From: an uncultured Eubacteriales bacterium | GTDB lineage: Bacteria > Acidobacteriota > Aminicenantia > Aminicenantales > Saccharicenantaceae | NCBI GenBank assembly: GCA_964585685.1 | Contig: CAZPEP010000044.1 | Location: forward strand, 5,458 to 69,457 | Reading direction: 5' to 3' | Length of the DNA: 64,000 nt | Shown: positions 1-61,817 of the stretch, in pieces | Layout: the number at the start of each line of letters is the position of its first letter | Numbering within the stretch: the stretch's first letter is position 1 | The notes under the pieces: model-generated | What the model was told of the DNA's origin: nothing | The model's database searches: none | What the model saw: only the letters and a program-made list of their open reading frames with translations | Position numbers and translations under genes: made by a program

Positions 1-35
1 TCAGAACGTGGATTAAGAGGAAGGAAACAACTTCT

Positions 36-581
36 ATGGCCGGCCCATGGTCCTCGGACAGGGATCTCGAAGCCCTTCTGGCCCGGTTCACGAACTTCAT
101 CCGGGCCCAAATCCAGAAGTTCGAGGTCCAGAGGTTCGGGATCGATCCGGACGATATCGCTCAGGAGGTTCGGATCAAGATCTGGAAACTCATCAAGAGT
201 GAGAAAAATATCAGCAGTTATGCGGCCTATATTAAGAAGATCGTGGATACCGTGGTGATAGACCAGCTCCGGCTGCTGAAGAAGGACGAACAGCTCTATA
301 GAATGGAGAAGCAAAAACAGGTCGCAGAGCAATTGAACGGATACAGGCCCGAGGTCCTTCGGAACGCCCTGATGAAGGAGGCCGTCGGAAAGGCTGTCGA
401 ATCCCTCATCGAGAGCCGAAGGAACGTGGTCAAGCTCTACCTTTTCGAACTGAGCATCGAGGAGATCTCCCGGTTTTACGGCTGGAGTCTGCACAAGACG
501 CGCAATCTTCTGTATAGGGGCCTGGCCGACCTGAAAAGGTCCCTAAAAAGGGCGGATATCGGAAATGGGCATGAGCGATAG
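36..581 (+). CDS. ECF-type RNA polymerase sigma-70 family factor
   Basis: 181 aa. Sigma region 2 and region 4 helix-turn-helix (LYLFELSIEEISRFYGWSLHKTRNLLYRGLADLKRSL). The 3' end overlaps the downstream anti-sigma start by 17 nt, as in typical sigma/anti-sigma operons. Confidence 0.85.
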   Translation: MAGPWSSDRDLEALLARFTNFIRAQIQKFEVQRFGIDPDDIAQEVRIKIWKLIKSEKNISSYAAYIKKIVDTVVIDQLRLLKKDEQLYRMEKQKQVAEQLNGYRPEVLRNALMKEAVGKAVESLIESRRNVVKLYLFELSIEEISRFYGWSLHKTRNLLYRGLADLKRSLKRADIGNGHER

Positions 582-1248
582 CGAACTTCGTCGGATCTAT
601 CGGTCCTACGTCTCGGGAAGGACCTTGGCGGCCAGGGAAGGATGCCCTCCTATCGAGGACCTCCGGGAGGCCTTCGAGGACACGACACCGCAAGCGGCCA
701 AGTACGAGATCGTCGATCATATCTCCGCCTGTTCGGATTGCGCCCGGGAATTCGAGTTCATCCGAGAGGTTCGGGCGAGGGAAAAGGAACTTGCCGCGGG
801 GATACGGGAGCTCACCCGGCACCGCCGCCCCCCCATCCTGTTCCTTTCCCGGCCCCTCCGGGGCTATGCTTTCGGAATGCTGATGCTCGCCGTCGTGATC
901 TCGGGCGTCATCGTGTTCAAGCATGACCGCGCCCAAGACGAGGGACGGAGCGGGTCCACCACGATCCCCGAGGCCCTCTCCCCGTCCGGATTCGTCGAGG
1001 CTCCTCCCCCCCTGATATTCAGGTGGAAGCCGGTCATTCGGGCCGCCTCCTATGTCGTCGAGATCTACGATGAGTCCCTGCAGCTTATTTGGGAAAGCCC
1101 CCCGGTCTCGACCACAGTGGCGATTCTTCCCGATCCGCTAAAGGAAGCGCTTTCGAGCGACAAGAATTACTATTGGTCGGTGCTGGCGCTCGATTCGGAA
1201 GGGAAAATCGGCGAATCGAAGTTCGAAGCCTTCTCCCTCGATCGCTGA
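565..1248 (+). CDS. Anti-sigma factor: zf-HC2 zinc finger, single transmembrane helix, periplasmic C-terminal domain
   Basis: N-terminal HxxxCxxC motif (HISACSDCAREF). Hydrophobic helix LRGYAFGMLMLAVVISGVIVF. The C-terminal roughly 90 aa are paralogous to the C-terminus of the 59159..59812 product. Confidence 0.7.
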   Translation: MGMSDSELRRIYRSYVSGRTLAAREGCPPIEDLREAFEDTTPQAAKYEIVDHISACSDCAREFEFIREVRAREKELAAGIRELTRHRRPPILFLSRPLRGYAFGMLMLAVVISGVIVFKHDRAQDEGRSGSTTIPEALSPSGFVEAPPPLIFRWKPVIRAASYVVEIYDESLQLIWESPPVSTTVAILPDPLKEALSSDKNYYWSVLALDSEGKIGESKFEAFSLDR

Positions 1249-4178
1249 CCCACGGAGGCGCTTCCCCGCCCCCTCCCTTCGCGTGAGGAATCCGGGCCGA
1301 AATCCCCGTTCAAAACGAACGCGGCCCAGTGGAACGGATGGGCATATTTTGATCGCAGCATCCGGACCTTGGCAAACCTCAGGGCCGCGGCCTTGCCGTA
1401 GCCCCGCGACAGGTATTCATAGAAACCATCCATGAAATAGGCCGTAGACCTGTCCCCGATAGGCCAGAGCGTCGATACCACCGATTTTGATCCGGCATAG
1501 AAGAACATCCTTGGGAGCCCCAAAAGCCCTTCGCCTCGCTCCAGACTGCCCCGTCCCGTTTGACAGGCCGACAGGACGACGAGGTCGGCGTCCAACCTCA
1601 GGTTATAGATCTCCCGTGCCTGAAGGATCCCGTCCTCCCCGTCGTTCCGACCGACCGAGAGGATCAGGGCTGATCGAAACGGGACCTTCTCATCCAAGAG
1701 CCCATGACAAGCGAAATGGACGATCCGGTAATCCTCAAGGGCCAGCACTTTCAGGTCCTCCTCCGCGGCCCGGGTCCCAAGCAGGATGTCTTTGGACCCT
1801 TTGGGGAAATGCCCGGCGATATCCAAGACCTCTTTCTTGCTGAACGGCAACTGGGAAAGATCGAAACCCTGTCCCTTATAGATCTCACCGACCGTCCATC
1901 CCGCCGTGGCATGCCCTTCCTTATCGACCGTCCCCGCCTTTGTCAAGGCGGGAGCGCCGAGGGCCAGAAGCGTCTTGCGCCACGGCCCAGCCGCTTTCCG
2001 GGAAAGGAAAACGAGGGAAGAAGAAGAAGGGGCATAGGATATCTCGAATCGTTCGATAAGATATCCCGAGACCGGAGCGCCGGACGGACGCAGCGTCTCG
2101 AACGGAAGGTAGTAAAGGATGCCGTCAGGGACGATAATGAGTCGTTTGAGCCCCTCGACGGGAAGGCCGGCGAGGGGCGGGAGGAGCTCGTCGGCGATCC
2201 TTTCCGCCGCGAGTCTCCCAGTAAACCCCTTCCTATCGGGAATCGAGAGGGCCTTGAGATAGCCCCTCAAGGACCTTTCGATCACCTCTCTGGGAGGGAG
2301 ATCGAAGAGCCTCACGCCGTTCTTGGTGATGAAGAACATGTAGGACCGGGCATCGCCGAGGAAGTATTCGATCAGACCCGTCTTTTCGTCCAGAAATTCG
2401 TTCCGAAGTCTTTGGATCGAATAAAGATCGGACGAGACCAAGCCCACAAGTCCGGGCTGTTCGGCTTTCATTTCGGAGATGAGCCTCAGCGATTCGTCTT
2501 CGGCGCGGCCGAGCTTCTTGAGCTTCTCGCCACGCTCCGCCTGCCTCAGGGCAGGATTGGATAACTCCAGAATGAGCGCCGAGATCTCCCTGGATATCTC
2601 TTCCTCCCTCTCCTTCAGGCCCTGCGTCAACCCGACCCGAAAATCGATCCTGGCCTCTCCCAGGCACTCGAGAAAAGCGCGGGCTTTCGCCTTTTCGACG
2701 ATGACGAACATCTCCTCGAGGCGGGTCCCGGACGGGTCCTCGTGGGAGAGCCTAAACAAAAGATTCAGAAGGCTCTCGAAGATCCCGAGCTTGTTCCTGG
2801 CAAAGCCGGCCTTGAACGTTTCCAGGAAGATCCGGCTCCTGATCGTATCGATCACGTCCACGGATTTCTGATAATAATGGAGGGCGTTGACGAGGTCTCC
2901 CCGTTTTTCGAGACATTGACCGAGCCCAAAGTAGGATTCCCAGACGGTATCTTTAAATAGATGAATCGCAGGAAGATCAACCGCATTTGAAAAGAGCTTT
3001 CGAGATTCGTTCAATCTATTCATTTTAAGAAAAACATTTCCTAAATTATTATATATGTTGCCAATAGCCTCTATGTTTTTTTGCTCGTTTGCCTTTGATA
3101 GTGCTAATTTAAAAAAGCTGATTGCGGTATCATATTCATTAAGATTTATATATATCGTCCCTTTATTATTTAAAACTTCAATTTCGGTTTTGACATCTGG
3201 AGACTTGCTCAGCATGTTCAAGCATCTATTAAAATAGCCAAGAGCCTCAATAAAATCGGACCTAATGTTGCTCTGATATGCTTTCTTCTCGAGTACCACA
3301 CCAATGTTGTTGTATGTTTTACATACATCAAGTGCTCGCCCATTCTCTAAGTCAATAGACAATGAATTCTTAAAGTGAATGAGCGCGTTATCATAATCAC
3401 CAAGATTCATGCTAATAAGACCAATATTGCTAACACATTCTGCTTCGGTTTGGCTGTCATTAAGCGGCCTTAAAATAAGAAGCGCCTGCTGGAAATGTCG
3501 GAGGGCCTTTGAATAGTCCGTCGATTTCCAGAAGTAGAGGCCGAGGTTGTTCAGGCATCGCCCCTGTTCGATCTTGAGGTTGAGTCTCATTGCGATTTTC
3601 AGGGCCTCTTCATTGTTCGAGAGGAAGCTCTTCAGGTCGTTCATTTGCCAGTATGTCCCGCTCATCTGACGGAGGCACTTGGCGACGAACTCCTCGCCTT
3701 TGATCCTCCGGCCGATCGCGAGCGCTTCTGAGAACGCCTCCAGGGACCGGGGCAGGGCGTTCGAGAGACGGAGGTCCTTCCCCTGATTGTACAGCCGGAT
3801 GATGTCCAGGGCCGCCCGGCTGATGAAAAGTACTCCGTCCGAGCCGGGAGTCCCGGCCTTCCGGGAGGCCTCGGAAAAGTTCCCCTCGGCCTCGCGGATT
3901 CGCCCCAGGTTCCATTGGAGAAGTCCCAGCTTCATCAGGCACGCGGCTTCGGCCGCCGTATCGTTCGCTTGCCGCGAGATCGTCAAGGCCTCTTGGAACC
4001 GGTCGATGGAACTCTCGAAATCGCCGCGGGCCCTGGCCTCTTCCCCCTTCCGGAAAGCCAGAGTGTAGGCTCCATTGTCCCGAACCCCCGGCTTGTCGGG
4101 GAGGTCCGTCCCCGTCGCGGCCGCGAACCCGGCGAGGGCCCCCGCCAGAAGAATGATGACCCTGCTTCCCCTCCGCAT
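1170..4178 (-). CDS. Secreted TPR-repeat / CHAT-domain (caspase-like His-Cys) protein
   Basis: 1002 aa. N-terminal signal peptide. Long run of TPR-like repeats. C-terminal CHAT hallmarks HFACHG ... LSACQTG. Convergent 79-nt overlap with the anti-sigma gene. Contains an AT-rich internal segment. Confidence 0.8.
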   Translation of the reverse strand: MRRGSRVIILLAGALAGFAAATGTDLPDKPGVRDNGAYTLAFRKGEEARARGDFESSIDRFQEALTISRQANDTAAEAACLMKLGLLQWNLGRIREAEGNFSEASRKAGTPGSDGVLFISRAALDIIRLYNQGKDLRLSNALPRSLEAFSEALAIGRRIKGEEFVAKCLRQMSGTYWQMNDLKSFLSNNEEALKIAMRLNLKIEQGRCLNNLGLYFWKSTDYSKALRHFQQALLILRPLNDSQTEAECVSNIGLISMNLGDYDNALIHFKNSLSIDLENGRALDVCKTYNNIGVVLEKKAYQSNIRSDFIEALGYFNRCLNMLSKSPDVKTEIEVLNNKGTIYINLNEYDTAISFFKLALSKANEQKNIEAIGNIYNNLGNVFLKMNRLNESRKLFSNAVDLPAIHLFKDTVWESYFGLGQCLEKRGDLVNALHYYQKSVDVIDTIRSRIFLETFKAGFARNKLGIFESLLNLLFRLSHEDPSGTRLEEMFVIVEKAKARAFLECLGEARIDFRVGLTQGLKEREEEISREISALILELSNPALRQAERGEKLKKLGRAEDESLRLISEMKAEQPGLVGLVSSDLYSIQRLRNEFLDEKTGLIEYFLGDARSYMFFITKNGVRLFDLPPREVIERSLRGYLKALSIPDRKGFTGRLAAERIADELLPPLAGLPVEGLKRLIIVPDGILYYLPFETLRPSGAPVSGYLIERFEISYAPSSSSLVFLSRKAAGPWRKTLLALGAPALTKAGTVDKEGHATAGWTVGEIYKGQGFDLSQLPFSKKEVLDIAGHFPKGSKDILLGTRAAEEDLKVLALEDYRIVHFACHGLLDEKVPFRSALILSVGRNDGEDGILQAREIYNLRLDADLVVLSACQTGRGSLERGEGLLGLPRMFFYAGSKSVVSTLWPIGDRSTAYFMDGFYEYLSRGYGKAAALRFAKVRMLRSKYAHPFHWAAFVLNGDFGPDSSREGRGRGSASVGQRSREKASNFDSPIFPSESSASTDQ

Positions 4179-4195
4179 TGAAAAATTCCAAATCT

Positions 4196-4286
4196 ATATA
4201 ATATGAGACCGTCCGGGATGTCAATTTTATCTCATTCCCTGAAAACCTACCCGTTTCATTGACTTTTCTCCGTTCCGGCCTATACT
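4196..4286. promoter_or_regulatory. Divergent sigma-70-like promoters: TTGACT-16-TATACT (+, 4259..4286) and TTGACA-17-TTATAT (-, 4196..4224)
   Basis: Hexamers read directly in the AT-rich gap between the CHAT start (4178, minus) and the 4309 plus-strand gene. Confidence 0.45.
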
Positions 4287-5287: not shown

Positions 5288-5752
5288 TCAAACAGGAGAT
5301 GTCAGCGCCGAGAACGTAAAGTCCCTATAGTGTTCAAGGATGTCCAGGATGAGGGCCTCCTTGGTGATCTTCATGATCTCCCCAGGGGAAAGTTCCTTCA
5401 TGAACTCCATGGCCCTCTCTTCCAAGACGGCGGACTTCGACTTTCTTCCTCTGAGAACGAGCCCAAGCTTGAGTTCGTAGGCGTTCTTCGGAAGGACGAC
5501 CCGATAGTGGAGGTTGTCCGTGTTCGAGCCGGGAAAGCTCAGTTCGAAGTTGATGGAACGGCCCTTGTCTTCGCGGAAACGGACCTTGACGCCGTAATCC
5601 CGCATCTCTTCCTTAAGGCTTTCGAAGGCCGGTTCAGCGATGAATTCGCAGAACTGGGCGAAGCTCTCCAAGGTATCGGCCTTGGCCTTCTCTATGAGCT
5701 TAAAGGCATCGAAGTGCTTTCTTAGCTCGTCCTTCCAGGTTTCTCCGGACAT
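5288..5752 (-). CDS. Hypothetical cytoplasmic protein
   Basis: 154-aa ORF with plausible composition; no recognised domain. Confidence 0.4.
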   Translation of the reverse strand: MSGETWKDELRKHFDAFKLIEKAKADTLESFAQFCEFIAEPAFESLKEEMRDYGVKVRFREDKGRSINFELSFPGSNTDNLHYRVVLPKNAYELKLGLVLRGRKSKSAVLEERAMEFMKELSPGEIMKITKEALILDILEHYRDFTFSALTSPV

Positions 5753-38963: not shown

Positions 38964-40517
38964 ATGCACCAGGCTTCGCAAACGGGAGCGTATATTGAAG
39001 AGATCTATGGGAAGCTGCTCGGCCGCAAGCCCGATAAAGAAGGTCTGGCCTACTACACCGGCAGGCTGGATCGGGGCGAGCTGACCCTGCCGGAATTCGT
39101 ACGCCAACTGAAAAATTCAACGGAGTACTGGCTGCGCCGTTTCCCCGGGGATATCCCACGACGAACCCTGGAAAATACAGTACTGAACGACCGCGAGACC
39201 CGGGAAAAAAGAACCGTCCTACAGTCCCGGCCCTATATCTTTAACATCGACTTGATCGGGATCTGCAATATGATCCCGCCCTGCAGCATGTGTTACAATT
39301 GGAAAAACGGCGTGGGGCCGCGTCATCATCGCGGGCTGAAGATCAAAGAGATCAAGCGTTTCGGTGAGCACCTGGAGTTGGCCCACGAGGTGATCAACTG
39401 CGGCATCGGCGAGCCCCTTCTCAACCGCGAGTTGATCCCCATCCTGCAGCTTTTCTATAATTGGGGCAAACCCTTCGGCTTTAACACCAACGGCCTCGCC
39501 CTCAGCCCAGCCATGACCGAGCGTATGGTCCCGTATTTTGAGATTCTGACCATCCTCTTCTCCCTGGACGCCGCCACGGGGGAAACTTACGCTAAGGTCA
39601 GGGGCCGCTTTTTCGACCGCGTGGTGAAGAACATCGCCTATTATAGCGCCAGAAGGCGAGAAGTGGCGCCTGATGGGCTCGCCTCTAAGACCGGAATCGT
39701 TTTCATGCCCATGCGCTGTAACCGCCACGAGACGGCCGACTTTATCCGTTTAGGGGCTCGCCTGGGTGTCGACGTTGTAGAGCTCCGGGCTCTGAACCAG
39801 ATCAATGAAAACTGGGTCGTCCGTCGCGGCGACTTCACCTTTAACTACCAACAGGAGATTCTCACCCCGGCCGAACTCGAAGAGATCAGACAGGAGGCGG
39901 CGGAAGTCGCCGTCTCTGAAGGAGTTCGCCTGGATTGCCAGTATCAGGTATCCCCGGAGAGCACCTTTTTCTTTTTTATCCCGCCCCAATACCGGGATCT
40001 GGGCATCCGCTGCATCCTGCCCTGGCGTTTCATCCTGCCCTATCAGAACGGCAATACTGTCCCATGCTGCTTCATCTCTGACGATCTCGGCGACTGGCGC
40101 AAAACCGGCCTAGAAAAACTGTGGAACGGCCCGTTCATGCAGAAGCTGCGGGGCCAGATGGCCACGGGGAACCTGCCCGGTTTGTGCCGCCGTTTCCCCT
40201 CCTGCCCGGTGGTACAGGCCACGCTGTCCGAGGAAAAGCGCCTCCATTCCGGATCCGTTAGCCCGCCGGTCATTCCCCCGGCGATGGATATCTCCGCAAT
40301 GCAGCCGGCCTTGCGGATGAGGGCGTCGCAGAAGCAAACCTTTATGAAACATGCCGTCCATGCGTTGAGGAAACGCTTCAATTTGGAATTGAACCACAGC
40401 CTGGGCGAGCTGTTCGCACGCCAGGAGAAGATCAATCGCGACCTAGCCGAGGAGGTCGAACGCCTGAAGGCCGAGGTAGCGGAAGTGCGCCGGGAGAAGG
40501 ATAAACAGCAGGGCTGA
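38964..40517 (+). CDS. DUF4214 - radical SAM - SPASM-like domain protein with C-terminal coiled-coil module
   Basis: N-terminal DUF4214 signature (LLGRKPDKEGLAYYTGRLDRGELTLPEFVRQLKNSTEY). Cys cluster CNMIPPCSMC (CX5CX2C). C-terminal Cys-rich SPASM/twitch-like region (VPCCF ... CRRFPSCP). About 50-aa coiled-coil tail. Confidence 0.65.
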   Translation: MHQASQTGAYIEEIYGKLLGRKPDKEGLAYYTGRLDRGELTLPEFVRQLKNSTEYWLRRFPGDIPRRTLENTVLNDRETREKRTVLQSRPYIFNIDLIGICNMIPPCSMCYNWKNGVGPRHHRGLKIKEIKRFGEHLELAHEVINCGIGEPLLNRELIPILQLFYNWGKPFGFNTNGLALSPAMTERMVPYFEILTILFSLDAATGETYAKVRGRFFDRVVKNIAYYSARRREVAPDGLASKTGIVFMPMRCNRHETADFIRLGARLGVDVVELRALNQINENWVVRRGDFTFNYQQEILTPAELEEIRQEAAEVAVSEGVRLDCQYQVSPESTFFFFIPPQYRDLGIRCILPWRFILPYQNGNTVPCCFISDDLGDWRKTGLEKLWNGPFMQKLRGQMATGNLPGLCRRFPSCPVVQATLSEEKRLHSGSVSPPVIPPAMDISAMQPALRMRASQKQTFMKHAVHALRKRFNLELNHSLGELFARQEKINRDLAEEVERLKAEVAEVRREKDKQQG

Positions 40518-40556
40518 GCGATTGACTTTCCACGGGGCCTCTCATACAATCAGGCC

Positions 40557-40853
40557 ATGGAACGCCCGGAAATGCTTGCCCGCATTGCCGCGATCAAAGC
40601 CGAGGTCGACGCGGCCAACCCCGACATCATCCGCCGCCTGATCACCGGGCACCGCGTCTTCGTTCAGACATCGCACCGGGCCTCCCTTCCAGCCAGGCTG
40701 ATCAACAGCATCCGGCGGAAACTGCTCTTCGAGGTGGAGCGGGGGCTGGAGCCCGCGTTCGAGCGGCAGCGGGAGATCAACCTGCGCCTGCTCAAGGAGA
40801 TCGAGGCCCTTAAAGTGGCGCTGGAGCAAAAGGGGCATGGCGCCTGCGGCTGA
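40557..40853 (+). CDS. Small coiled-coil protein (98 aa) carrying the recurrent RQ-x2-IN ... EIE-x-LK module
   Basis: Same strand and operon context as flanking genes. C-terminal motif matches the tail of the preceding rSAM enzyme and the 43121..43648 protein. Confidence 0.45.
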   Translation: MERPEMLARIAAIKAEVDAANPDIIRRLITGHRVFVQTSHRASLPARLINSIRRKLLFEVERGLEPAFERQREINLRLLKEIEALKVALEQKGHGACG

Positions 40854-41925
40854 AGCTCGGGCCGAAGCCGGCCGCTCTCTGACCATCGCCGTCTGTGCGC
40901 CTCAGGTGCCTTTCGTCAGCGGCGGAGCCGAGGAGCACGTGGCCTCCCTGTGCCGGGAGTTGCGCGTCCGGGGTCACCGGGTGGAGCTGATCACCCTCCC
41001 TTACAAATGGTATCCCCGGGCCCAGTTATGGCGCAGCATGAAGATGTGGGAAATGGCCGACCTGAGCGAAGCGAACGGTCTCAAGATCGACCTGGTCATC
41101 GCCACCAAGTTTCCGTCCTATTTCGTTCACCACAGCCGCCAGGTGCTGTGGCTAATCCATCAATACCGTCAACTCTACGATCTCTACGGCACCCCGTATT
41201 CGGAATACACTCCGAACCGGTGGCGCGACCGTCGGCTCCACCGCCGCTTCGTGGCCCGCGATACAGCCGCGCTTGCCCGTTTTGCCAAACGTTTCACCAA
41301 TTCGGACAACACCCGGCAACGGATGTACAGATACAACGGGTTGGAGGCCGAGACCCTCTACCACCCCCCCAAGCTGGCCGATCGCCTTCAATGTCTGGAA
41401 TACGGCGATTACATTCTTTCGGTGGGCCGTTTGGACCAGCTCAAGAGGACCGAAGGCCTGATCCATGCTTTGGCGCGGACGAAGTCTGCGGTCCGGGCCG
41501 TGATCGCCGGAACCGGGCCCGAAGAGCACGGCCTCAAGCAGCTGACCCGTGACCTGGGCCTTACGGCGCGGGTGGAGTTTCCCGGATATGTCGATGACGA
41601 TCGTCTGATCGACCTTTATGGCCGCTGCCTGGCCGTTTTTTTCGCTCCGCTCGACGAGGATTACGGGTACGTCACCTTGGAGGCCTTCCTAGCCGCCAAA
41701 CCCGTTCTGACCTGCAGCGACTCCGGCGGGTCCTTGGAATTCGTGGCTCACGAACGGAACGGGTTCGTTCTGCCGCCCGGAGATTGGGCCGCGGCGGCTT
41801 CCTGCATCGACCGCCTCTACCGCGACCGTGAGCTCTGCCGGAGCCTGGGCGCAACCGGCAGGGCAGCGGTGAGCGCCCTCACGTGGGATCATGTGCTTAC
41901 CCGATTGCTGGAGGGAGCGGTATGA
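40837..41925 (+). CDS. Glycosyltransferase family 4
   Basis: GT-B fold. C-terminal EX7E-type region (TLEAFLAAKPVLTCSDSGGSLEFVAHERNGFV). Confidence 0.8.
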   Translation: MAPAAEARAEAGRSLTIAVCAPQVPFVSGGAEEHVASLCRELRVRGHRVELITLPYKWYPRAQLWRSMKMWEMADLSEANGLKIDLVIATKFPSYFVHHSRQVLWLIHQYRQLYDLYGTPYSEYTPNRWRDRRLHRRFVARDTAALARFAKRFTNSDNTRQRMYRYNGLEAETLYHPPKLADRLQCLEYGDYILSVGRLDQLKRTEGLIHALARTKSAVRAVIAGTGPEEHGLKQLTRDLGLTARVEFPGYVDDDRLIDLYGRCLAVFFAPLDEDYGYVTLEAFLAAKPVLTCSDSGGSLEFVAHERNGFVLPPGDWAAAASCIDRLYRDRELCRSLGATGRAAVSALTWDHVLTRLLEGAV

Positions 41926-55002: not shown

Positions 55003-57354
55003 ATGAAACGTTCCCAGGCGAAGAGGAACGGCACGTCGTCGCGCCCGGAAAAGCGCAAGCCGGGCTTGGCCGTCGAGATCGTCGCCGTCCTTATGATCTT
55101 CGTCGGCATCTTCGCTCTCCTCAGTCTGGCTAGCTACAATCACCGCGACCCGTCTTGGGCCAATTCCCTGGAGGCGGGGCACGGCGTGCACAACTACGCC
55201 GGCCGGGCGGGAGCCCATTTCGCCGAAGCCCTGCTCCAGTTCCTCGGACTCATGGCCTTTTTCATCCCCTTCGCCTTCGGGTTCGTCGGGATCAAGGCCA
55301 TTCTCCCCGACGGCCGGTCCCGGCTCGTCGCCCGGACGGTCGGAGTCGTGCTCCTGCTCCTCATCCTCTGCCCCCTGCTCTTCCTCCTTTTCGGGAGCTT
55401 CCCGTGGGGGAAGGCCGAGATCCGGGCGGGAGGGATCCTGGGGGACCTTCTGTCTTCAGCCCTCGTCGGCTACCTGAATCCCACCGGCTCGCTTATTCTG
55501 CTGGCCGCCGCACTCGTCCTCTTTCTCCTGTTCTCCACGCGCTGGTCGCTCGCCCGGACGGCGCGGCTCTCCCGCAAGGCATTCGATTCGGCGTTCCAGA
55601 ACGTCACGATCAAGGTCACCCGTTACCAGAAGACCAAAGAACGGGAGAAGCGACGGGAAAAGGTTGCCAAGAAGTGGGCCGCCGCGGCCGTAACACCCGA
55701 GGAAAAGCCGGACGCCGAGGGAACCGACCGGAAGGAAGCCCGGCAGCTGGAAAAGGAACGGGAGAAAGAGCGGAAACGCCGGGAAAAGGAGGCGAAAAAG
55801 AAGAAGGAGAGGGCTCCCGCCGGCCCGGCCCCCGCCGAGAACCTGCTTTTTCCCGACCTCGGCAAGAAGGGCGATTATAACTTCCCCCCGTTCAGCCTCC
55901 TCGAACCGGGCAAGCCCTCGGAGAAGATCGACAAGAACGAGCTCTACGAGAAGAAGCGGCGGATCGAGGATAAGCTCAAGGAGTTTGACGTGGCCGGCGA
56001 GGTTCGCGAGTACCACCCCGGCCCGGTTATCACGACCTACGAGCTGTTCCCCGACCCCGGCATCAAGGTCTCCCGGGTGGCCAGCCTCACCGAGGACCTG
56101 TCCCTCGCCCTCGAGGCCGAGTCGGTCCGCATCCAGAGGATCCCGGGCAAATCCTCTCTCGGCGTCGAGATCCCCAACAACAAGCGCGAGGTCATCAAGC
56201 TCCGGGACATCATCCAGTCGGAGAAGTTCCTGAATTCGCAATCGAAGCTGACGATCGCCCTGGGCAAGAACGTCCACGGCGAGGTCTACATCACCGACCT
56301 GGCCATCATGCCCCATCTCCTGATCGCCGGGGCCACAGGGTCGGGAAAGAGCGTCGCCCTCAACGCGATCATCGCCAGCATCCTTTACAAAGCAACGCCG
56401 GACGAGGTCAAGCTCCTCCTCATCGATCCCAAGCGGCTCGAGTTCTCGCTCTACGAGGGCATCCCCCACCTTCTGGCGCCGGTCATCAACGATCCGAAGA
56501 AAGCGGGCTTCATCCTCTTCGACGCCGTCCGGAAGATGGAGGAGAGGCTGCGTCTCCTCGGCCAGATGAAGGTCCGGGACATCACCCAGTTCAACAAGAC
56601 CGTCGAGCAGACGCTCCAGGAAAAGAAGGGGAAGCTGACCGAGGAGGAGAAGAAGATCCTCAAGCCCCTCCCCTACATCGTCATCATCATCGACGAGCTG
56701 GCCGAGCTGATGATGGTCAGCGCCCAGGAGGTCGAGAGCAGCATCACCCGCCTGGCCCAGCTGGCCCGGGCCGTCGGCATCCACCTCGTCATGGCCACCC
56801 AGCGGCCCTCGATCGACGTCATCACCGGGACGATCAAGAACAACTTTGGCTGCCGCATCGCCTTCCGCGTCCCGTCCAAGATCGACTCCCGGATTATTCT
56901 CGACGGGGGCGGCGCCGACAAGCTGCTCGGCCTCGGCGACATGCTCTTCCTGCCGCCGAACTTCCCGCGCCTGATGAGGCTCCACTGCGCCTATATCTCT
57001 ATTCCCGAGGTCAAGAGGCTCGTCAAGTTCGTCAAGGAGCAGGGCACGCCCGAATACGACGAGCGCATCGTCGAAGCCGTCAAGGGCGACATCGACCAGC
57101 TCTGGGAGGAGTTCGGGGAAAAGGACGAACTCTACGACAAGGCCCTCGAGCTCGTGCTCCTCACGGGCCAGGCCTCGGCCTCGTACCTCCAGCGACGCCT
57201 GAAGCTTGGCTACGCCCGCGCGGCGCGGATCATCGACCAGATGGAGAACGACGGGGTCATCGGCCATTCCGAGGGCAGCAAAGCCCGGGAGATCCTCGTC
57301 GACGCCAAGTCCTACCTAAAGGACAATGTGCGTCGCCAGCCCCGCAACGAATGA
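55003..57354 (+). CDS. ftsK: DNA translocase FtsK
   Basis: N-terminal TM domain. Pro/Lys/Glu-rich linker. Motor domain with Walker A GATGSGKS. C-terminal gamma (winged-helix) domain. Confidence 0.9.
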   Translation: MKRSQAKRNGTSSRPEKRKPGLAVEIVAVLMIFVGIFALLSLASYNHRDPSWANSLEAGHGVHNYAGRAGAHFAEALLQFLGLMAFFIPFAFGFVGIKAILPDGRSRLVARTVGVVLLLLILCPLLFLLFGSFPWGKAEIRAGGILGDLLSSALVGYLNPTGSLILLAAALVLFLLFSTRWSLARTARLSRKAFDSAFQNVTIKVTRYQKTKEREKRREKVAKKWAAAAVTPEEKPDAEGTDRKEARQLEKEREKERKRREKEAKKKKERAPAGPAPAENLLFPDLGKKGDYNFPPFSLLEPGKPSEKIDKNELYEKKRRIEDKLKEFDVAGEVREYHPGPVITTYELFPDPGIKVSRVASLTEDLSLALEAESVRIQRIPGKSSLGVEIPNNKREVIKLRDIIQSEKFLNSQSKLTIALGKNVHGEVYITDLAIMPHLLIAGATGSGKSVALNAIIASILYKATPDEVKLLLIDPKRLEFSLYEGIPHLLAPVINDPKKAGFILFDAVRKMEERLRLLGQMKVRDITQFNKTVEQTLQEKKGKLTEEEKKILKPLPYIVIIIDELAELMMVSAQEVESSITRLAQLARAVGIHLVMATQRPSIDVITGTIKNNFGCRIAFRVPSKIDSRIILDGGGADKLLGLGDMLFLPPNFPRLMRLHCAYISIPEVKRLVKFVKEQGTPEYDERIVEAVKGDIDQLWEEFGEKDELYDKALELVLLTGQASASYLQRRLKLGYARAARIIDQMENDGVIGHSEGSKAREILVDAKSYLKDNVRRQPRNE

Positions 57355-57381
57355 AGTGCCCTCCTGCCCTCCGCCAATCCT

Positions 57382-57524
57382 AAATCCCCATTTTTTCAAA
57401 AATCCCCCAATAGTCCCCCTTTTTCAAAGGGGGATACTGATGAGGTGTCCACCTTTTTTATAGGGGTTAGGGGGGACTTAGTAGCTACCCCCCTTTGTAA
57501 AAGGGGGGCTGGGGGGATTTAATT
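57382..57524. repeat. Nested G5/C5 palindromic element with two GC hairpins, overlapping the HD-GYP stop codon
   Basis: Hairpin 1: TCCCCC-TTTTTCAAA-GGGGGA (57414..57434). Hairpin 2: CCCCCC-TTTGTAAAA-GGGGGG (57488..57508). Outer inverted repeats AAATCCCCC (57400..57408) / GGGGGGATTT (57511..57520) and AGTCCCCC (57412..57419) / GGGGGACT (57471..57478). Confidence 0.5.
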
Positions 57525-58292
57525 GACCGAGGGGAGCAGACCGGGAAATCGGACATCGGTCCGAGCCTGGCGCCAGGAGGAGACGGGGATGGACAGGAAT
57601 ACGTCCACGACGGCGGGATCGAACTGCCTGCCGCTTGCTCTTCCGATCTCCCGGAGGGCCTCCTCGAAGCGCCACCCCTTGCGATAGGGACGGTCGGAGG
57701 TGATGGCATCCAGGGTGTCGGCCAGGGCGAAGACCCGGGCCACGAGGGGAATGCTCCGGCCGGCGAGCCCGCGCGGATAGCCCGTGCCGTCGAACCGCTC
57801 GTGGTGACAGAGAATGATCTCCCCGGCCTCCTCCAGGAAACCGAGCCCCTCGGTCATTTTGTAACCAAGGACGGGGTGCTCCCTGACAATCTCCCTCTCG
57901 ATGGCGGTCAGGGCGCCGGGTTTGTTCAGGATGGAGGCGGGCACGCCCGCCTTCCCTATGTCATGGAGGAGGGCGCCGCGTTCTATGCCCGCCAAGGTCC
58001 GGTGATCCCGGATTCCCATGGCGTCGGCCAGGATGGACGCATAGGCGGCCACGAACCGGGAATGCCCGTCGGCTTCCCCTCCTCCGGCTTCGGCCGCGAG
58101 GAGCCCGACCAAGCGGGAATTGAAGAACGTCCCGATGCCGGATGGACGGGAGGCGCGGGATCCGCTCCGGTCCCCGGATTCCCTACCGCCGGGTTCCGCC
58201 GGCGGCGCGGACGGGAACACGTAGAAATAGGTCCTGAGTCCGTTCGCGTCTTCCAAAACGAGCCGTTTTTCCCTGTCCATCATCCCGATCAT
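57519..58292 (-). CDS. HD-GYP domain c-di-GMP phosphodiesterase
   Basis: HDIGK ... GYP-type metal-dependent phosphohydrolase motifs (LLHDIGKAGVP, ILCHHERFDGTGYP). Confidence 0.85.
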   Translation of the reverse strand: MIGMMDREKRLVLEDANGLRTYFYVFPSAPPAEPGGRESGDRSGSRASRPSGIGTFFNSRLVGLLAAEAGGGEADGHSRFVAAYASILADAMGIRDHRTLAGIERGALLHDIGKAGVPASILNKPGALTAIEREIVREHPVLGYKMTEGLGFLEEAGEIILCHHERFDGTGYPRGLAGRSIPLVARVFALADTLDAITSDRPYRKGWRFEEALREIGRASGRQFDPAVVDVFLSIPVSSWRQARTDVRFPGLLPSVN

Positions 58293-58566
58293 CTCACGTT
58301 TCCCTTTTTTCTCCGGGAGCGCTCAAAAGGCTCCGGCGCTCAAGCAGGGGCCCCAGCCGGCGATCGGGCTGGTTTCGACGAGTTCGAAGCCGTCCTCCCT
58401 GAGCCGTGTCTCGATGTAAGAGCAGAATTCCTGTTCGTCCCTGATCACAACACAGTCGCGTTCCCGGGGGCCTTTCGAAAATTCACTTTCGATCATGGGC
58501 ATCCGTCCTTTCATCGAGCAATAGGTTAGTCGGGGGATAGGGCGGAAAATTGACGGAAATCCAGGC

Positions 58567-58595
58567 TTGTCAACTCATTGGGCGCCCTTTATAAT
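58567..58595 (+). promoter_or_regulatory. Sigma-70 consensus promoter TTGTCA-17-TATAAT upstream of the second ECF sigma gene
   Basis: Exact hexamers with 17-nt spacer. Lies inside the over-extended ORF-track start, so the real start codon is downstream (TTG about 58629). Confidence 0.55.
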
Positions 58596-59102
58596 ACGGG
58601 CGTGACCGAGAACAGGGCCGGGATCGACTTGGATGAGCTTGTCCTCAAGTTCAGGCCCGTCGTGGCCTTCCGGGTCCGAAAGGCCATCGGGGGGGCTACC
58701 CCAGACTGGGAGGACGTGGCCGACGGGGTCATCACCCAGGTCATTGAAAAGATCCGGAACGGGGAATTCCGCGGGGAATCCTCCATAGGGACGTTCATCT
58801 ACACCATCACGAGCCGCCGGATCATCGACCACATCCGTGAGAAGACCAAGGTCCTGAGGCACGCCCCGGAGCCCGCCCCCTTTCCGGACCCCAGCGAGGC
58901 GGTCGAGACTCAGGAACGGGCCGCCCTGATCGCCGAAGCCGTTAAGGGGCTCAAGCCGAAGTTCCGGGAAGTCCTTTACCTCTATTACTATAAGGAATTG
59001 CCCCGGGAGGAAGTGGCCAAAAGGCTGGGGATCCCGCCCCGCCGGGTCAGCGAACGCGTCAATTACGCCCTCAAGCTCATCAAAAAGGACATGAAAAAAT
59101 GA
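58578..59102 (+). CDS. ECF-type sigma-70 family factor (second copy); true start probably about 58629
   Basis: Region 2 (DWEDVADGVITQVIEKIRNGEF) and region 4 HTH (LYLYYYKELPREEVAKRLGIPPRRVSERV). Confidence 0.8.
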   Translation: MGALYNTGVTENRAGIDLDELVLKFRPVVAFRVRKAIGGATPDWEDVADGVITQVIEKIRNGEFRGESSIGTFIYTITSRRIIDHIREKTKVLRHAPEPAPFPDPSEAVETQERAALIAEAVKGLKPKFREVLYLYYYKELPREEVAKRLGIPPRRVSERVNYALKLIKKDMKK

Positions 59103-59158
59103 GCCTTTCTTCCATTTTCCCCTCTCCCGGACGACTAAAGGGTTGAAATCAAGGAAAG

Positions 59159-59812
59159 GTGGCGGAAATGAAGACATGCCGTTATGAGAGTTGGATCGAC
59201 GGCTACCTCCTCGGGAAGCTCAGCGAGAAGGAGACCGGGGAGTTCGAGAAACATTATTTCGAGTGCGCTCCCTGTTTCGCGAAGCTGGCCGAGCAGGACG
59301 AGATCATCGGCGTGCTGAAGCGCGACCGGTCTGCGTTCGTCGCCGAGGAGCGGCCTGCCATCGAGACGAGGAAGACCGCCTGGTACGATAGGGCCTTCTC
59401 ATTCTTCACCCCCCGCCAGTGGGCGTTCGCCGGAGCGGCCGCCGCCCTGCTCGTCGCCGTCCTCACCGTCACCTCCCTCTTCCGCAACGCCCCGCCCGAG
59501 TTCGTGTTGAACGGGGAGGACACGGTCCGCGGGAGCTCCCTGACCCTGATCTCCCCGGTCATCGACATCGGCTCCATACCCGCCTTTTTCGAGTGGAGGG
59601 CGCTCGGGACGGACGTGGAATACCAGGTCTCCATCTACAACGGCAAGCTCCTCTGGAAGACGACGACCAGGGACAGCCGCCTCAGTCTCCCCGACGACAT
59701 CAAGGCCCTTATGACCGCCGGCCAAAAGTACTCCTGGCAGGTCAAGGCCTTCTCCTCCCAGGGCACCCTCATTGCCGTCTCCAGCCGGGTCCAGTTCACG
59801 ATCAATCATTGA
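59159..59812 (+). CDS. Anti-sigma factor: zf-HC2, transmembrane helix, periplasmic domain paralogous to 565..1248
   Basis: HYFECAPCFAKL zinc finger. TM helix FAGAAAALLVAVLTV. C-terminal FxWR ... IY ... LxW ... LPD ... YxWxVxA pattern shared with the first anti-sigma. Confidence 0.7.
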   Translation: MAEMKTCRYESWIDGYLLGKLSEKETGEFEKHYFECAPCFAKLAEQDEIIGVLKRDRSAFVAEERPAIETRKTAWYDRAFSFFTPRQWAFAGAAAALLVAVLTVTSLFRNAPPEFVLNGEDTVRGSSLTLISPVIDIGSIPAFFEWRALGTDVEYQVSIYNGKLLWKTTTRDSRLSLPDDIKALMTAGQKYSWQVKAFSSQGTLIAVSSRVQFTINH

Positions 59813-60115
59813 GACCCAAGGCCGCCCCGTATCCGAGGTCCTCGCTCGTGCCCGCCTTCGAAGGGCTGAGAGATTCCCTGCAAGGCGTTCTCAATCGGAG
59901 AGGATTGCCGCACGAAGGACGGAGGGGATATCCTGACGGAAGCTCTCTGGAGGTAGGAGCGGGCAAGGTTCCCCGTCCGTAAGGACGGGGAGAGCGACGA
60001 CCGGAAGGGGAGCGGAATTGACACGCTGGGGCAATTCCGCGTCTTCCGGAAGGATGTCCCTGAGTCCTTCGAAGGCAATCCCACTCAGAATCAGAAGGAG
60101 CCTGCGAAGGGGATT

Positions 60116-60802
60116 CTAATCCTCGATGTTGTGGTCGTCCATGTCCTCGATGTAGAGCCGGCCCTTGGTTTGCTCCTCGAAGGCCAGACAGCACATCAGC
60201 CGCCCGCAGAGGCCGGAGATCTTCGTCGGGTTGATGACGATCTGCTGTTTTCGGGCCTTCTGGATGGTCACGGGCTCGAACGTCCTCATAAAGGTCGCGC
60301 AACAGAGCATCCGGCCGCACGTCCCCAGCCCGCCGATCATCTTGGCCTCGTCCCGGACGCCGACCTGGCGCATTTCGATCCGCATCCTCAGCTCCTTGGC
60401 CAGGTCTTTGACAAGCTGGCGGAAATCAATCCGGCCGTCCGCCGTATAATAGAAGATCCCCTTCTTTTCGTTGAAGAAGTAGCGCACCGAGACCAGCTTC
60501 ATCGGCAGATTCCGGGACGTAATCCTCTGGAGGCAGAGCTCAAAGGCCAGCCCTTCCTTTTCCTGGAGCCAGGCGAACTTCTGCCGGTCATCCTCGGTGG
60601 CCTTCCGGATGATCTGGACCGCCCCCAGGCCCGCCCGCGGGTTGCAGCAGACCGGACTGGAATCGTCGACGACGACCGCCAGGTCCCCGCCGAGCTCCGA
60701 TTCCAAGATGCAGTAGTCCCCGGCGCTCAGGGGCTCCTCGCCCTTCCGGGCGCGGACGATCTTCCCCGTCGATTCGGATAACAGACAAACGATGTCAGGC
60801 AT
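60116..60802 (-). CDS. yaaT: PSP1 C-terminal domain protein (YaaT/RicT-like)
   Basis: Conserved PSP1 core with Cys-rich C-terminal half (GTCGRMLCC ... GLCGRLMCC). Located directly downstream of holB. Confidence 0.85.
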   Translation of the reverse strand: MPDIVCLLSESTGKIVRARKGEEPLSAGDYCILESELGGDLAVVVDDSSPVCCNPRAGLGAVQIIRKATEDDRQKFAWLQEKEGLAFELCLQRITSRNLPMKLVSVRYFFNEKKGIFYYTADGRIDFRQLVKDLAKELRMRIEMRQVGVRDEAKMIGGLGTCGRMLCCATFMRTFEPVTIQKARKQQIVINPTKISGLCGRLMCCLAFEEQTKGRLYIEDMDDHNIED

Positions 60803-61817
60803 GTGGCGCTTCCCCTAAATTCGAATAGAACGCGGCCGCCAGGAGGTTGAGGTTCATGTTCCTGTCCAGGCCCGTCAGGGCCGCGTCAACGGAACCCAGG
60901 CACGACTGGAGCTGCCGGAGGTTCCAGAGCTCCGTCGCTGCCCGGATCTCTTCCTCGAGGTCGGGGTTGAGCAGGAACCGGCCCTCCCCGCCCTCCTTGA
61001 TCAAGAGGACGTCCCGGGCGAAGGAGGCGAACAGCTTCAGCGTCCGCCGGAGGTCGTCCCCCCCCATGGCGCGCGTAACAAAGGCGAACTCGTTCAGGAA
61101 ATCGGACCCCCCTCCTCCCGCGAGCAGGGCCCGGAACAGGGCCCAGGCTCCCTGCCGTCCCTCAAGGGCCTCGTCCCAGTCCCGGTCGAGGGCGTTTTCC
61201 ATGCTGCCGTTGGCCAGGAACGCGAGGAGTTTCGCCCGGTCGGCGGGGTGCCCCCCGGCAACGAGGGCCCGGGCGATCTCCTCCCTGGCGACGAGGGAGA
61301 ATTCTAGGGTTCGGCACCGGGACCGGATCGTGGGCAGGACGAGGTGCGGTTTTTCGGTGACCAGGATAAGAGTCGAGGCGGCCGGGGGCTCTTCGAGGAC
61401 CTTCAGGATGGAGTTGGAGGCTTCTTCGCTCATGACGTCCGCCCCCCGGACGATGAAGACCCGAGCCCTGCCGGACATCGGCCTGAGGTAGGCCATCTGC
61501 TTGAGCAGGCGGATCTGTTCGATCGCGATCTTCTTCTTGTTCTCTACGATCGAGACGAGCATGACGTCCGGGGCGAGGCCCTGCTTCTCAGGGTCCCGAG
61601 AGGCCGCCTCGATCACCCGGCAGGACGAGCAGGCATCGCAGGCGTCGTCCTCGAGGTTCAGGCAGTTCAAGGCCTTGGCTACGGTCACGGCCGTCGCCGT
61701 CTTGCCCACGCCCTCCGGGCCGGAGAACAGGAGCGAATTGGGGAGCCTGTGCCTCCGGAGAGCCATCTGCAGGATGTGCTTGACCCGGTCGTTGCCTGTG
61801 ATGTCTATAAACGCCAT
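60795..61817 (-). CDS. holB: DNA polymerase III delta-prime subunit
   Basis: AAA+ clamp-loader P-loop GPEGVGKT. Zn-module cysteines (CLNLEDDACDACSSC). SRC motif (TIRSRC). Confidence 0.8.
   Translation of the reverse strand: MAFIDITGNDRVKHILQMALRRHRLPNSLLFSGPEGVGKTATAVTVAKALNCLNLEDDACDACSSCRVIEAASRDPEKQGLAPDVMLVSIVENKKKIAIEQIRLLKQMAYLRPMSGRARVFIVRGADVMSEEASNSILKVLEEPPAASTLILVTEKPHLVLPTIRSRCRTLEFSLVAREEIARALVAGGHPADRAKLLAFLANGSMENALDRDWDEALEGRQGAWALFRALLAGGGGSDFLNEFAFVTRAMGGDDLRRTLKLFASFARDVLLIKEGGEGRFLLNPDLEEEIRAATELWNLRQLQSCLGSVDAALTGLDRNMNLNLLAAAFYSNLGEAPHA

Follow-up and report, generated by a model that had tools for sequence, protein, structure and literature searches.

A conserved sigma/anti-sigma factor pair with a predicted FN3-like outer domain and a candidate promoter motif in Aminicenantes

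The DNA analysed here, called the window, is a stretch of 64,000 nucleotides (nt) from an uncultured bacterium of the Aminicenantia (assembly GCA_964585685.1, contig CAZPEP010000044.1, forward-strand positions 5,458 to 69,457). Its G+C content is 62%, and the names of homologues point to Candidatus Aminicenantes. Two open reading frames (ORFs) on the same strand fill positions 58578-59812. They encode a putative sigma factor of the extracytoplasmic function (ECF) type and a putative anti-sigma factor, and are referred to as pair 2. The original prediction described them as a second ECF sigma/anti-sigma pair, paralogous to a first one (pair 1) elsewhere in the window. The assignment as an ECF sigma/anti-sigma pair was borne out by family matches to Pfam, TIGR02937, and zf-HC2. 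The two genes, the sequences around them, and their relatives in other genomes are described below.

As called mechanically, the sigma ORF (58578..59102, + strand) encodes 174 amino acids (aa), with matches to Pfam Sigma70_r2 and Sigma70_r4. From GTG 58602, the start favoured below, the product has 166 aa (58602..59102, +). The NCBIfam model sigma70-ECF (TIGR02937) was passed with 83.7 bits against a cut-off of 42.9, and Pfam region 4 scored 43.5 bits; no match to region 3 rose above noise in the Pfam search. The protein thus has the regions 2 and 4 only, the length of about 160-200 aa, and the family model of the ECF (group 4) sigma factors. The sigma gene also lies directly upstream of the anti-sigma gene in 85/85 loci. 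An autoregulatory AAC/CGT promoter upstream of the sigma gene was not found; the upstream element is TTGTCA-17-TATAAT. Positive autoregulation is common among ECF sigma factors, and it is not obligatory. Among solved structures, the closest relative by sequence is RpoE of Rhodobacter sphaeroides (2q1z, E 5e-7). Membership in the sigma-28 (FliA/WhiG) group, which has regions 2, 3, and 4 and about 240 aa, was rejected for this 166-aa protein without region 3. The TIGR02479 match was restricted to region 4, and the WhiG match had an E-value of 1.2e-5. The main text of the ECF re-classification paper contains no mention of Aminicenantes, fibronectin, or CHAT.

A sigma-70-type promoter was found ahead of the sigma gene (58567..58595, +). 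It consists of TTGTCA (58567-58572), a 17-nt spacer, and TATAAT (58590-58595), and matches the consensus at 11/12 positions. The mechanical start codon, TTG 58578, falls inside the promoter spacer. The resulting 5' extension (58578..58601, +) is made of promoter spacer and -10 box, and is most likely non-coding. The -10 box ends 6 nt ahead of GTG 58602, the sole conserved sigma start. Sigma orthologues are called at 165-166 aa, with the first codon at the position of this GTG, and both hexamers and the GTG are kept in the aligned close relatives. Further afield, about 52 of the 78 species compared retain TTG(T/C)CA-N17-TATAAT. In 38 of these, an in-frame GTG or ATG lies 6-8 nt past TATAAT (6 nt, n=11; 7 nt, n=25; 8 nt, n=2). 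The Saccharicenans-like clade has TTGAAA-17/18-TATTTT instead, followed by a leader of 25-56 nt with a ribosome-binding site. Two internal start codons were rejected: TTG 58629 is CTG in close relatives, and GTG 58662 would drop a protein segment kept in distant orthologues.

Public annotations of the sigma gene disagree. An exact look-up returned 166 aa in JGI, where the protein is named an ECF subfamily sigma factor, and in Logan; the NCBI record and one ENA contig give 174 aa. The frame is indeed open from TTG 58578, and a TTGACG hexamer at 58550 is conserved, which would suit a 174-aa protein transcribed from a promoter further upstream. Such a start is nevertheless very improbable. It would sit in the spacer of the conserved promoter, its 8 additional codons are unconserved and are not open in locus L004 or in more distant relatives, and no usable -10 box follows TTGACG in the clade of the window. 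The recurrence of a start codon just past TATAAT in 38 species also argues against it. We conclude, as judged from conservation, that GTG 58602 is the likely start of the sigma gene. The original prediction of an over-extended ORF with the promoter inside it is therefore upheld. Because the -10 box lies 6-8 nt before the start codon, where transcription would begin, the sigma mRNA is probably leaderless in the clade of the window. This geometry had been overlooked by the original prediction, as had a conserved motif that flanks the sigma gene on both sides. Another possible leaderless gene was seen at window positions 40522-40853, where a 98-aa ORF begins with ATG 40557 and the last base of TTGACT-17-TACAAT is 6 nt away from this codon on its 5' side. 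This ORF is flanked by a 517-aa ORF (38964..40517) and a 362-aa ORF (40837..41925).

The mechanical anti-sigma ORF (59159..59812, +) encodes 217 aa and only just passes the zf-HC2 model, with 22.5 bits where 22.2 are required. Its start also has to be shifted, from GTG 59159 to ATG 59168, as a correction to the original prediction; the predicted protein then has 214 aa (59168..59812, +). Three parts can be distinguished. The predicted cytoplasmic zinc-finger domain covers aa 1-55 (59168-59332, +), a predicted membrane helix covers about aa 85-106 (59420-59485, +), and a predicted extracytoplasmic FN3-like domain covers aa 126-214 (59543-59809, +). In an alignment of 101 orthologues, the zinc ligands C4 and H29-x3-C33-x2-C36 are invariant or nearly so. 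The protein has the features of the class I zinc-binding anti-sigma (ZAS) domain: H-x3-C-x2-C, a fourth ligand upstream, and a helical N-terminus. AlphaFold2, run with the same alignment, modelled the N-terminal domain confidently as helical, with helices at aa 5-14, 20-30, and 34-52. The linker and membrane helix were poorly defined, and residues 127-212 formed a confident β-sandwich with a predicted local distance difference test score (pLDDT) >90. A sequence search of the PDB with the anti-sigma profile returned RslA alone, at E 0.2.

The outer domain has the seven strands of the FN3-type fold. Its best compact fold matches are accessory domains of polysaccharide lyases and glycosidases, and a porphyran-binding module. 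The Pfam family Ig_Rha78A_N (PF25788), which has a cut-off of 27.4 bits, matched the anti-sigma factors of both window pairs below threshold (15.9 and 20.4 bits); the Pfam search gave no fn3 (PF00041) match on these two proteins. An outer-domain profile built from both anti-sigma families matched 16,081 representative proteins (E <= 0.001) of 1.84 billion. The top matches are proteins of 1000-6800 aa that carry 7-39 tandem copies, and the sampled relatives pass the Pfam Ig_Rha78A_N and fn3 models. The outer domain thus appears, by predicted structure, to be a divergent single FN3-type module and no new kind of domain. The original prediction had called it a domain of unknown function; that description can be replaced by the assignment to an FN3-fold module, which draws on the structure prediction and the large repeat family. 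Mean column identity among the anti-sigma orthologues is highest in the FN3 part (0.74), followed by the sigma-binding domain (0.68) and the linker (0.46). This conservation argues for a specific function outside the cell. The literature search on Aminicenantes ECF systems and on FN3 anti-sigma factors found nothing relevant.

The paralogous anti-sigma gene of pair 1 lies at 565..1248 (+), after its sigma gene (36..581, +). The only CHAT gene of the window, a convergent TPR-CHAT gene of 1002 aa (1170..4178, -), follows it. The two anti-sigma factors share a C-terminal pattern of F-x-W, Y-x-V-x-I-Y, L-x-W, LPD, Y-x-W-x-V-x-A, G, and F. BLASTP aligned them at E 1e-8, with 24% identity across 126 aa. 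The Smith-Waterman score of the last 92 aa was 91, against 25.0 +/- 4.5 for 5000 shuffles (z 14.6), and none of the 5000 scored as high; the paralogy and the comparison with shuffled controls proposed in the original prediction both held. In a tblastn search of the whole window with the pair 2 anti-sigma factor, the pair 1 anti-sigma factor was the only relative (E 2e-6). The profile-profile comparison of the two families gave a probability of 98.3% and an E-value of 1.2e-14 over 189 columns, so that the homology reaches beyond the C-terminus. The multiple alignment showed invariant W, Y, L, W, P, and W columns in both families, and a C...H-x3-C-x2-C motif near the N-terminus common to both. 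The homology spans the whole protein, from the zinc motif through the membrane helix to the FN3 domain. The original prediction of a duplicated C-terminal sensor domain was thus right about the duplication, and its restriction to the C-terminus does not stand.

The FN3-like family is very large and many of its members hold numerous copies, and the two sigma factors are only 24% identical (E 1e-3). The C-terminal similarity might on these grounds reflect the independent capture of a common FN3 repeat, with no duplication of the module. This is quite unlikely, given that the similarity of the anti-sigma factors is collinear through all three parts and that each is the only relative of the other in the window. 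Duplication of one sigma/anti-sigma module is favoured. The pairs differ strongly in their spread. Homologues of the pair 2 anti-sigma factor numbered 315 (E <= 0.001) in a large protein collection; those listed are 46-97% identical and nearly all have 214-217 aa. A relative is encoded in 182 species-representative genomes, apparently all of Aminicenantes, whereas the CHAT-linked anti-sigma factor has 25 homologues. The numbers of species and homologues led us to read pair 2 as the ancestral copy. By this comparison, pair 2 is the older core copy, and the CHAT-linked pair is a narrow, lineage-restricted side branch; the label of a "second" pair is therefore misleading. Three relatives keep the pair 1 context of two TPR-CHAT genes, a sigma-54 activator, and DUF6599. 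In loci L086-L089, which represent relatives and the left flank of the window (1-4200), pair 1 lies between two TPR-CHAT genes, and a sigma-54 activator without a receiver and DUF6599 genes adjoin. In the window, the TPR-CHAT gene shares 79 nt (1170-1248) with the 3' end of the pair 1 anti-sigma gene.

The neighbourhood of pair 2 was compared in 85 fetched loci. The gene order is a divergent HD-GYP gene, then sigma and anti-sigma genes, then convergent yaaT and holB. The HD-GYP gene is divergent upstream in 71/85 loci, yaaT is convergent downstream in 80/85, and holB in 74/85. A CHAT partner was sought around pair 2 and found in 0/85 loci, in agreement with the original prediction of a pair that lacks CHAT and adjoins yaaT-holB. 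In the window, Pfam matches place yaaT (PSP1) at 60116..60802 (-) and holB at 60795..61817 (-). They are syntenic neighbours of pair 2, with no sign of a functional link.

On the other side of the sigma gene lies a divergent operon. Its first gene is a small conserved ORF of 57 aa (58323..58496, -) with start codon ATG 58496 and the ribosome-binding site AAAGGA. The second gene encodes an HD-GYP protein (57519..58292, -; Pfam HD_5 4e-36), a predicted phosphodiesterase of cyclic di-GMP (c-di-GMP), with a partial NCBIfam match to a response-regulator c-di-GMP phosphodiesterase. The small ORF corresponds to a conserved protein of 53-72 aa in many species, with gene calls of 57-62 aa in public contigs. 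The small protein carries the motif E..F..Y(L/I)E..L...G(Y/F).L(V/L)ET.P, and looks like the first β-α-β unit of a receiver domain.

Several observations concern the spacers around these genes. Between the stop codons of the anti-sigma gene and yaaT lies a spacer of 303 nt (59813-60115) with an unusually stable predicted RNA fold (-146 kcal/mol, z -4.0). It includes a perfect hairpin, CCCCGTCCGTAAGGACGGGG, at about 59971-59990. The close relatives L003 and L006 share 124 nt of this spacer at 79% identity, but there the segment is inverted relative to the flanking genes. This spacer is merely about 15-25 nt long in Saccharicenans loci. An Rfam search of 57300-60300 gave U4atac as its sole match, at 29.9 bits against a gathering score of 53; it was taken as chance. 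That sub-threshold match sits at 57392-57509 (-), in the spacer past the HD-GYP gene.

An alignment of the region upstream of the sigma gene first showed an invariant TTAGTCG...AAATTGA, which belongs to a bipartite motif of the form TTC(C/A)ATTTT-N13-CGACTAA. When the window was searched with two mismatches allowed, two sites were found against 0.17 expected, one at 58526-58553 and one on the opposite strand at 59111-59138, within the 65-nt spacer between the sigma and anti-sigma genes. The spacer site (59106..59139, +) has TTCCATTTT from 59110 and CGACTAA at 59132-59138, and is a candidate promoter of the anti-sigma gene. Its twin upstream of the sigma gene (58525..58558, -) has GTCAATTTT from 58554 downwards and CGACTAA at 58532-58526, and is a candidate promoter of the divergent operon. 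The twin is an exact match to TTAGTCG-N14-AAATTGA; it faces the small ORF (ATG 58496) and then the HD-GYP gene. Where an ORF after the twin site was found, it was long (284-374 aa) in 17/62 loci, and is read as the small protein fused to HD-GYP.

The motif is strongly conserved among the relatives. The spacer consensus ttTTTTCCatTTTT-N12-CGACTAAA is present in 81/81 non-redundant loci. CGACTAA begins 36-38 nt ahead of the anti-sigma ATG in 64 of the 81, a distance into which a short leader that includes the ribosome-binding site would fit. A position matrix was built solely from the set of spacer sites. In the 64-kb window it gave only two sites of at least 8 bits, the spacer site (36.0) and the twin (15.4). 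Across the loci, a minus-strand twin (ttTTCAATTTTTt-N11-gCGACTAA) lies at most 400 nt upstream of the sigma gene in 68/81. In about 600 kb of loci, three weak hits were the only clearly unrelated ones of at least 10 bits. A G+C-rich palindromic insert, ctcaccccacccccctc...gggagg, occurs between the divergent motif and the sigma promoter in some loci, e.g. L031, L033, L041, L050, and L070. It shifts the divergent motif from about -75 to -110 or further.

Other explanations of the spacer element were tried and rejected. An RNA element found no support in RNAalifold, which gave no consensus structure for 77 distinct spacers; the spacer from the window folded no better than shuffles (z -0.3). A scan of the 65-nt spacer found no terminator-like site. 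As for a housekeeping promoter, the motif has no hexamer that fits TAnnnT and conserves the T at its sixth position, and 20-21 nt would separate it from TTCAAT. The best reading of the CGACTAA motif is a promoter for an alternative sigma factor, because of its two-block layout, its fixed gap, its position before the ribosome-binding site, the lack of a housekeeping -10 box, and its strict linkage to the sigma gene. The pair 2 sigma factor is the best candidate for the reader of these sites.

The motif was also searched in metagenomes, in an exact 17-base version. Such a scan mixes chance matches in AT-rich contigs with real sites, and the size of a regulon therefore cannot be derived from it. 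Among the 121 matches listed, 39 fall at the sigma/anti-sigma locus. Seven more of the listed matches (L093, L097, L110, L126, L132, L137, and L162) precede single-domain receiver genes at a distance of 20-40 nt. These receiver genes are homologous to one another and encode 137-149 aa, and their relatives are labelled Aminicenantes. Further CGACTAA(A/T) sequences occur within about 160 nt upstream in four of these seven loci. Upstream of the pair 1 sigma gene, an in-register element, ATTTCTCAAT(A/T)TTT...GTGAGA(C/A)AAA, resembles the pair 2 motif in its first block and departs from it in the second. It is the best sub-threshold matrix match per 10-kb locus, at 4365-4398 in L088 and at the same place in L086, L087, and L089. 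These elements hint that the promoter specificities of pair 1 and pair 2 might be related but insulated.

Several points weigh against assigning the motif to the pair 2 sigma factor and against the wider reading built on that assignment. The motif is tied to the sigma factor only by its position and geometry. The usual ECF consensus combines AAC as first block with CGT as second; the TTCAAT and CGAC blocks differ from it, and are about equally similar to the consensus of flagellar sigma-28. The sigma gene itself is not preceded by a copy of the motif, so the usual ECF autoregulation is absent. The Pfam Sigma70_r2 score of the sigma factor is 22.7 bits, slightly under the cut-off of 24. Leaderless translation from GUG is documented in actinobacteria, and is not known from Aminicenantes.

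The motif might thus be read by another alternative sigma factor, e.g. one like sigma-28/FliA, or be the operator of a regulator, with the pair 2 sigma factor controlling other genes. The blocks resemble TAAAGTTT-N11-GCCGATAA as much as any ECF consensus, no sense-strand copy lies upstream of the sigma gene, and further copies of the motif sit at receiver genes distant from it. We regard this as rather unlikely, since both sites flank the pair 2 sigma gene in nearly every species across the whole class, and about a third of the listed metagenome matches (39/121) sit at its locus. Two blocks separated by an unconserved 13-nt gap, 23-30 nt before a ribosome-binding site and ATG, also suit a promoter better than an operator, and the paralogous pair 1 has a related element.

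Recognition by the pair 2 sigma factor is part of a broader interpretation, which is put forward tentatively. The motif might be the cognate promoter of an undescribed ECF class with inverted wiring, within a class-wide core pathway of the Aminicenantes from an envelope or glycan signal at the FN3 domain to c-di-GMP turnover. As a component of the same tentative interpretation, the inverted wiring would consist of a leaderless sigma gene under a housekeeping promoter, with the sigma-dependent promoters driving only the inhibitor and a small output set. That output set would comprise, equally tentatively, the small protein with the HD-GYP phosphodiesterase, and the stand-alone receiver.

ECF sigma factors with zinc-finger membrane anti-sigma factors are textbook systems, and several resemble pair 2. 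SigW/RsiW of Bacillus subtilis also combines a small sigma factor (regions 2 and 4) with an adjacent anti-sigma factor of about 210 aa, and RsiW likewise has an N-terminal H-x3-C-x2-C and a single membrane helix, with some 90-100 aa forming its outer domain. RsiW is released through proteolysis by PrsW and RasP. Pair 2 differs in the FN3 fold of its predicted outer domain, and in a sigma gene that has a housekeeping-type promoter in place of an autoregulated one, and a probably leaderless mRNA. Its candidate cognate promoter precedes the anti-sigma gene. RpoE/ChrR of R. sphaeroides includes the closest solved relative of the sigma factor, and the weak profile match of the anti-sigma factor (E 0.2) was to RslA of the Mycobacterium tuberculosis SigL/RslA pair (3hug). 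The zinc motif of ChrR and RslA has the same ligand spacing as the pair 2 anti-sigma factor. However, ChrR is soluble and has a cupin sensor domain, RslA has another outer part, and the sequence identities are low.

SigI/RsgI of Clostridium thermocellum also has a membrane anti-sigma factor with a β-sandwich module outside the cell, and RsgI carries extracellular carbohydrate-binding modules. RsgI differs in its non-zinc-finger cytoplasmic domain and its SigI-type sigma partner. The Ig_Rha78A_N/fn3 repeats of large surface proteins share fold and sequence signature with the pair 2 anti-sigma factor, which has a single copy below the Pfam cut-off. For the wiring, parallels are FliA/FlgM and the P3 promoter of rpoE-rseA in Escherichia coli, where the anti-sigma gene has a promoter dependent on the inhibited sigma factor and negative feedback results. 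FlgM is a secreted soluble protein, FliA has region 3, and E. coli rpoE is also autoregulated. The feedback suggested for pair 2, likened to flgM and rseA P3, is read from the sequence.

Pair 2 is probably a membrane-spanning ECF-type sigma/anti-sigma signalling module and a core feature of the Aminicenantes. A leaderless mRNA would give constitutive synthesis of the sigma factor, which would be kept at the membrane by the anti-sigma factor through its cytoplasmic domain. The FN3 domain would face outward and detect a ligand or partner, possibly a glycan or an envelope component. Glycan binding is only a lead, and comes from the fold neighbours of the outer domain. On receipt of a signal the anti-sigma factor would be removed, most likely through regulated proteolysis as for RsiW. 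The freed sigma factor would then use the CGACTAA-type promoters. It might thereby raise the level of the anti-sigma factor, as negative feedback, and also that of the small protein, the HD-GYP phosphodiesterase, and a single-domain receiver encoded elsewhere. The outcome would be a link between envelope sensing and c-di-GMP and phosphorelay signalling.

As the main alternative, the trigger might be cytoplasmic. Oxidation or loss of zinc at C4/H29/C33/C36 would release the sigma factor, as in RsrA, with the FN3 domain as an anchor or spacer. The high conservation of all four ligands and their spacing, which is that of ChrR and RsrA, are compatible with this mechanism. It is nonetheless unlikely: conservation within the anti-sigma factor is highest in the FN3 domain, many zinc-finger anti-sigma factors have no redox sensing, and for those anchored in the membrane, such as RsiW, release occurs through proteolysis. 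Proteolytic release after outside sensing is the mechanism favoured here.

The Aminicenantes are uncultured and abundant in sediments and subsurface sites, and to our knowledge their regulation is almost undescribed. Pair 2 is not conceptually new; its type is ordinary, and what is unusual is part of its inferred wiring. The start codons of both genes have been corrected, a fold has been assigned to the sensor domain, and a candidate promoter motif, with three or more target units, is offered for testing. If the promoter reading is true, the wiring would be unusual, with a housekeeping-driven sigma factor and a sigma-dependent inhibitor and small signalling output. Nearly all sampled species genomes carry the module, in a constant chromosomal position, and it is therefore likely a central stress or envelope sensor of the Aminicenantes.

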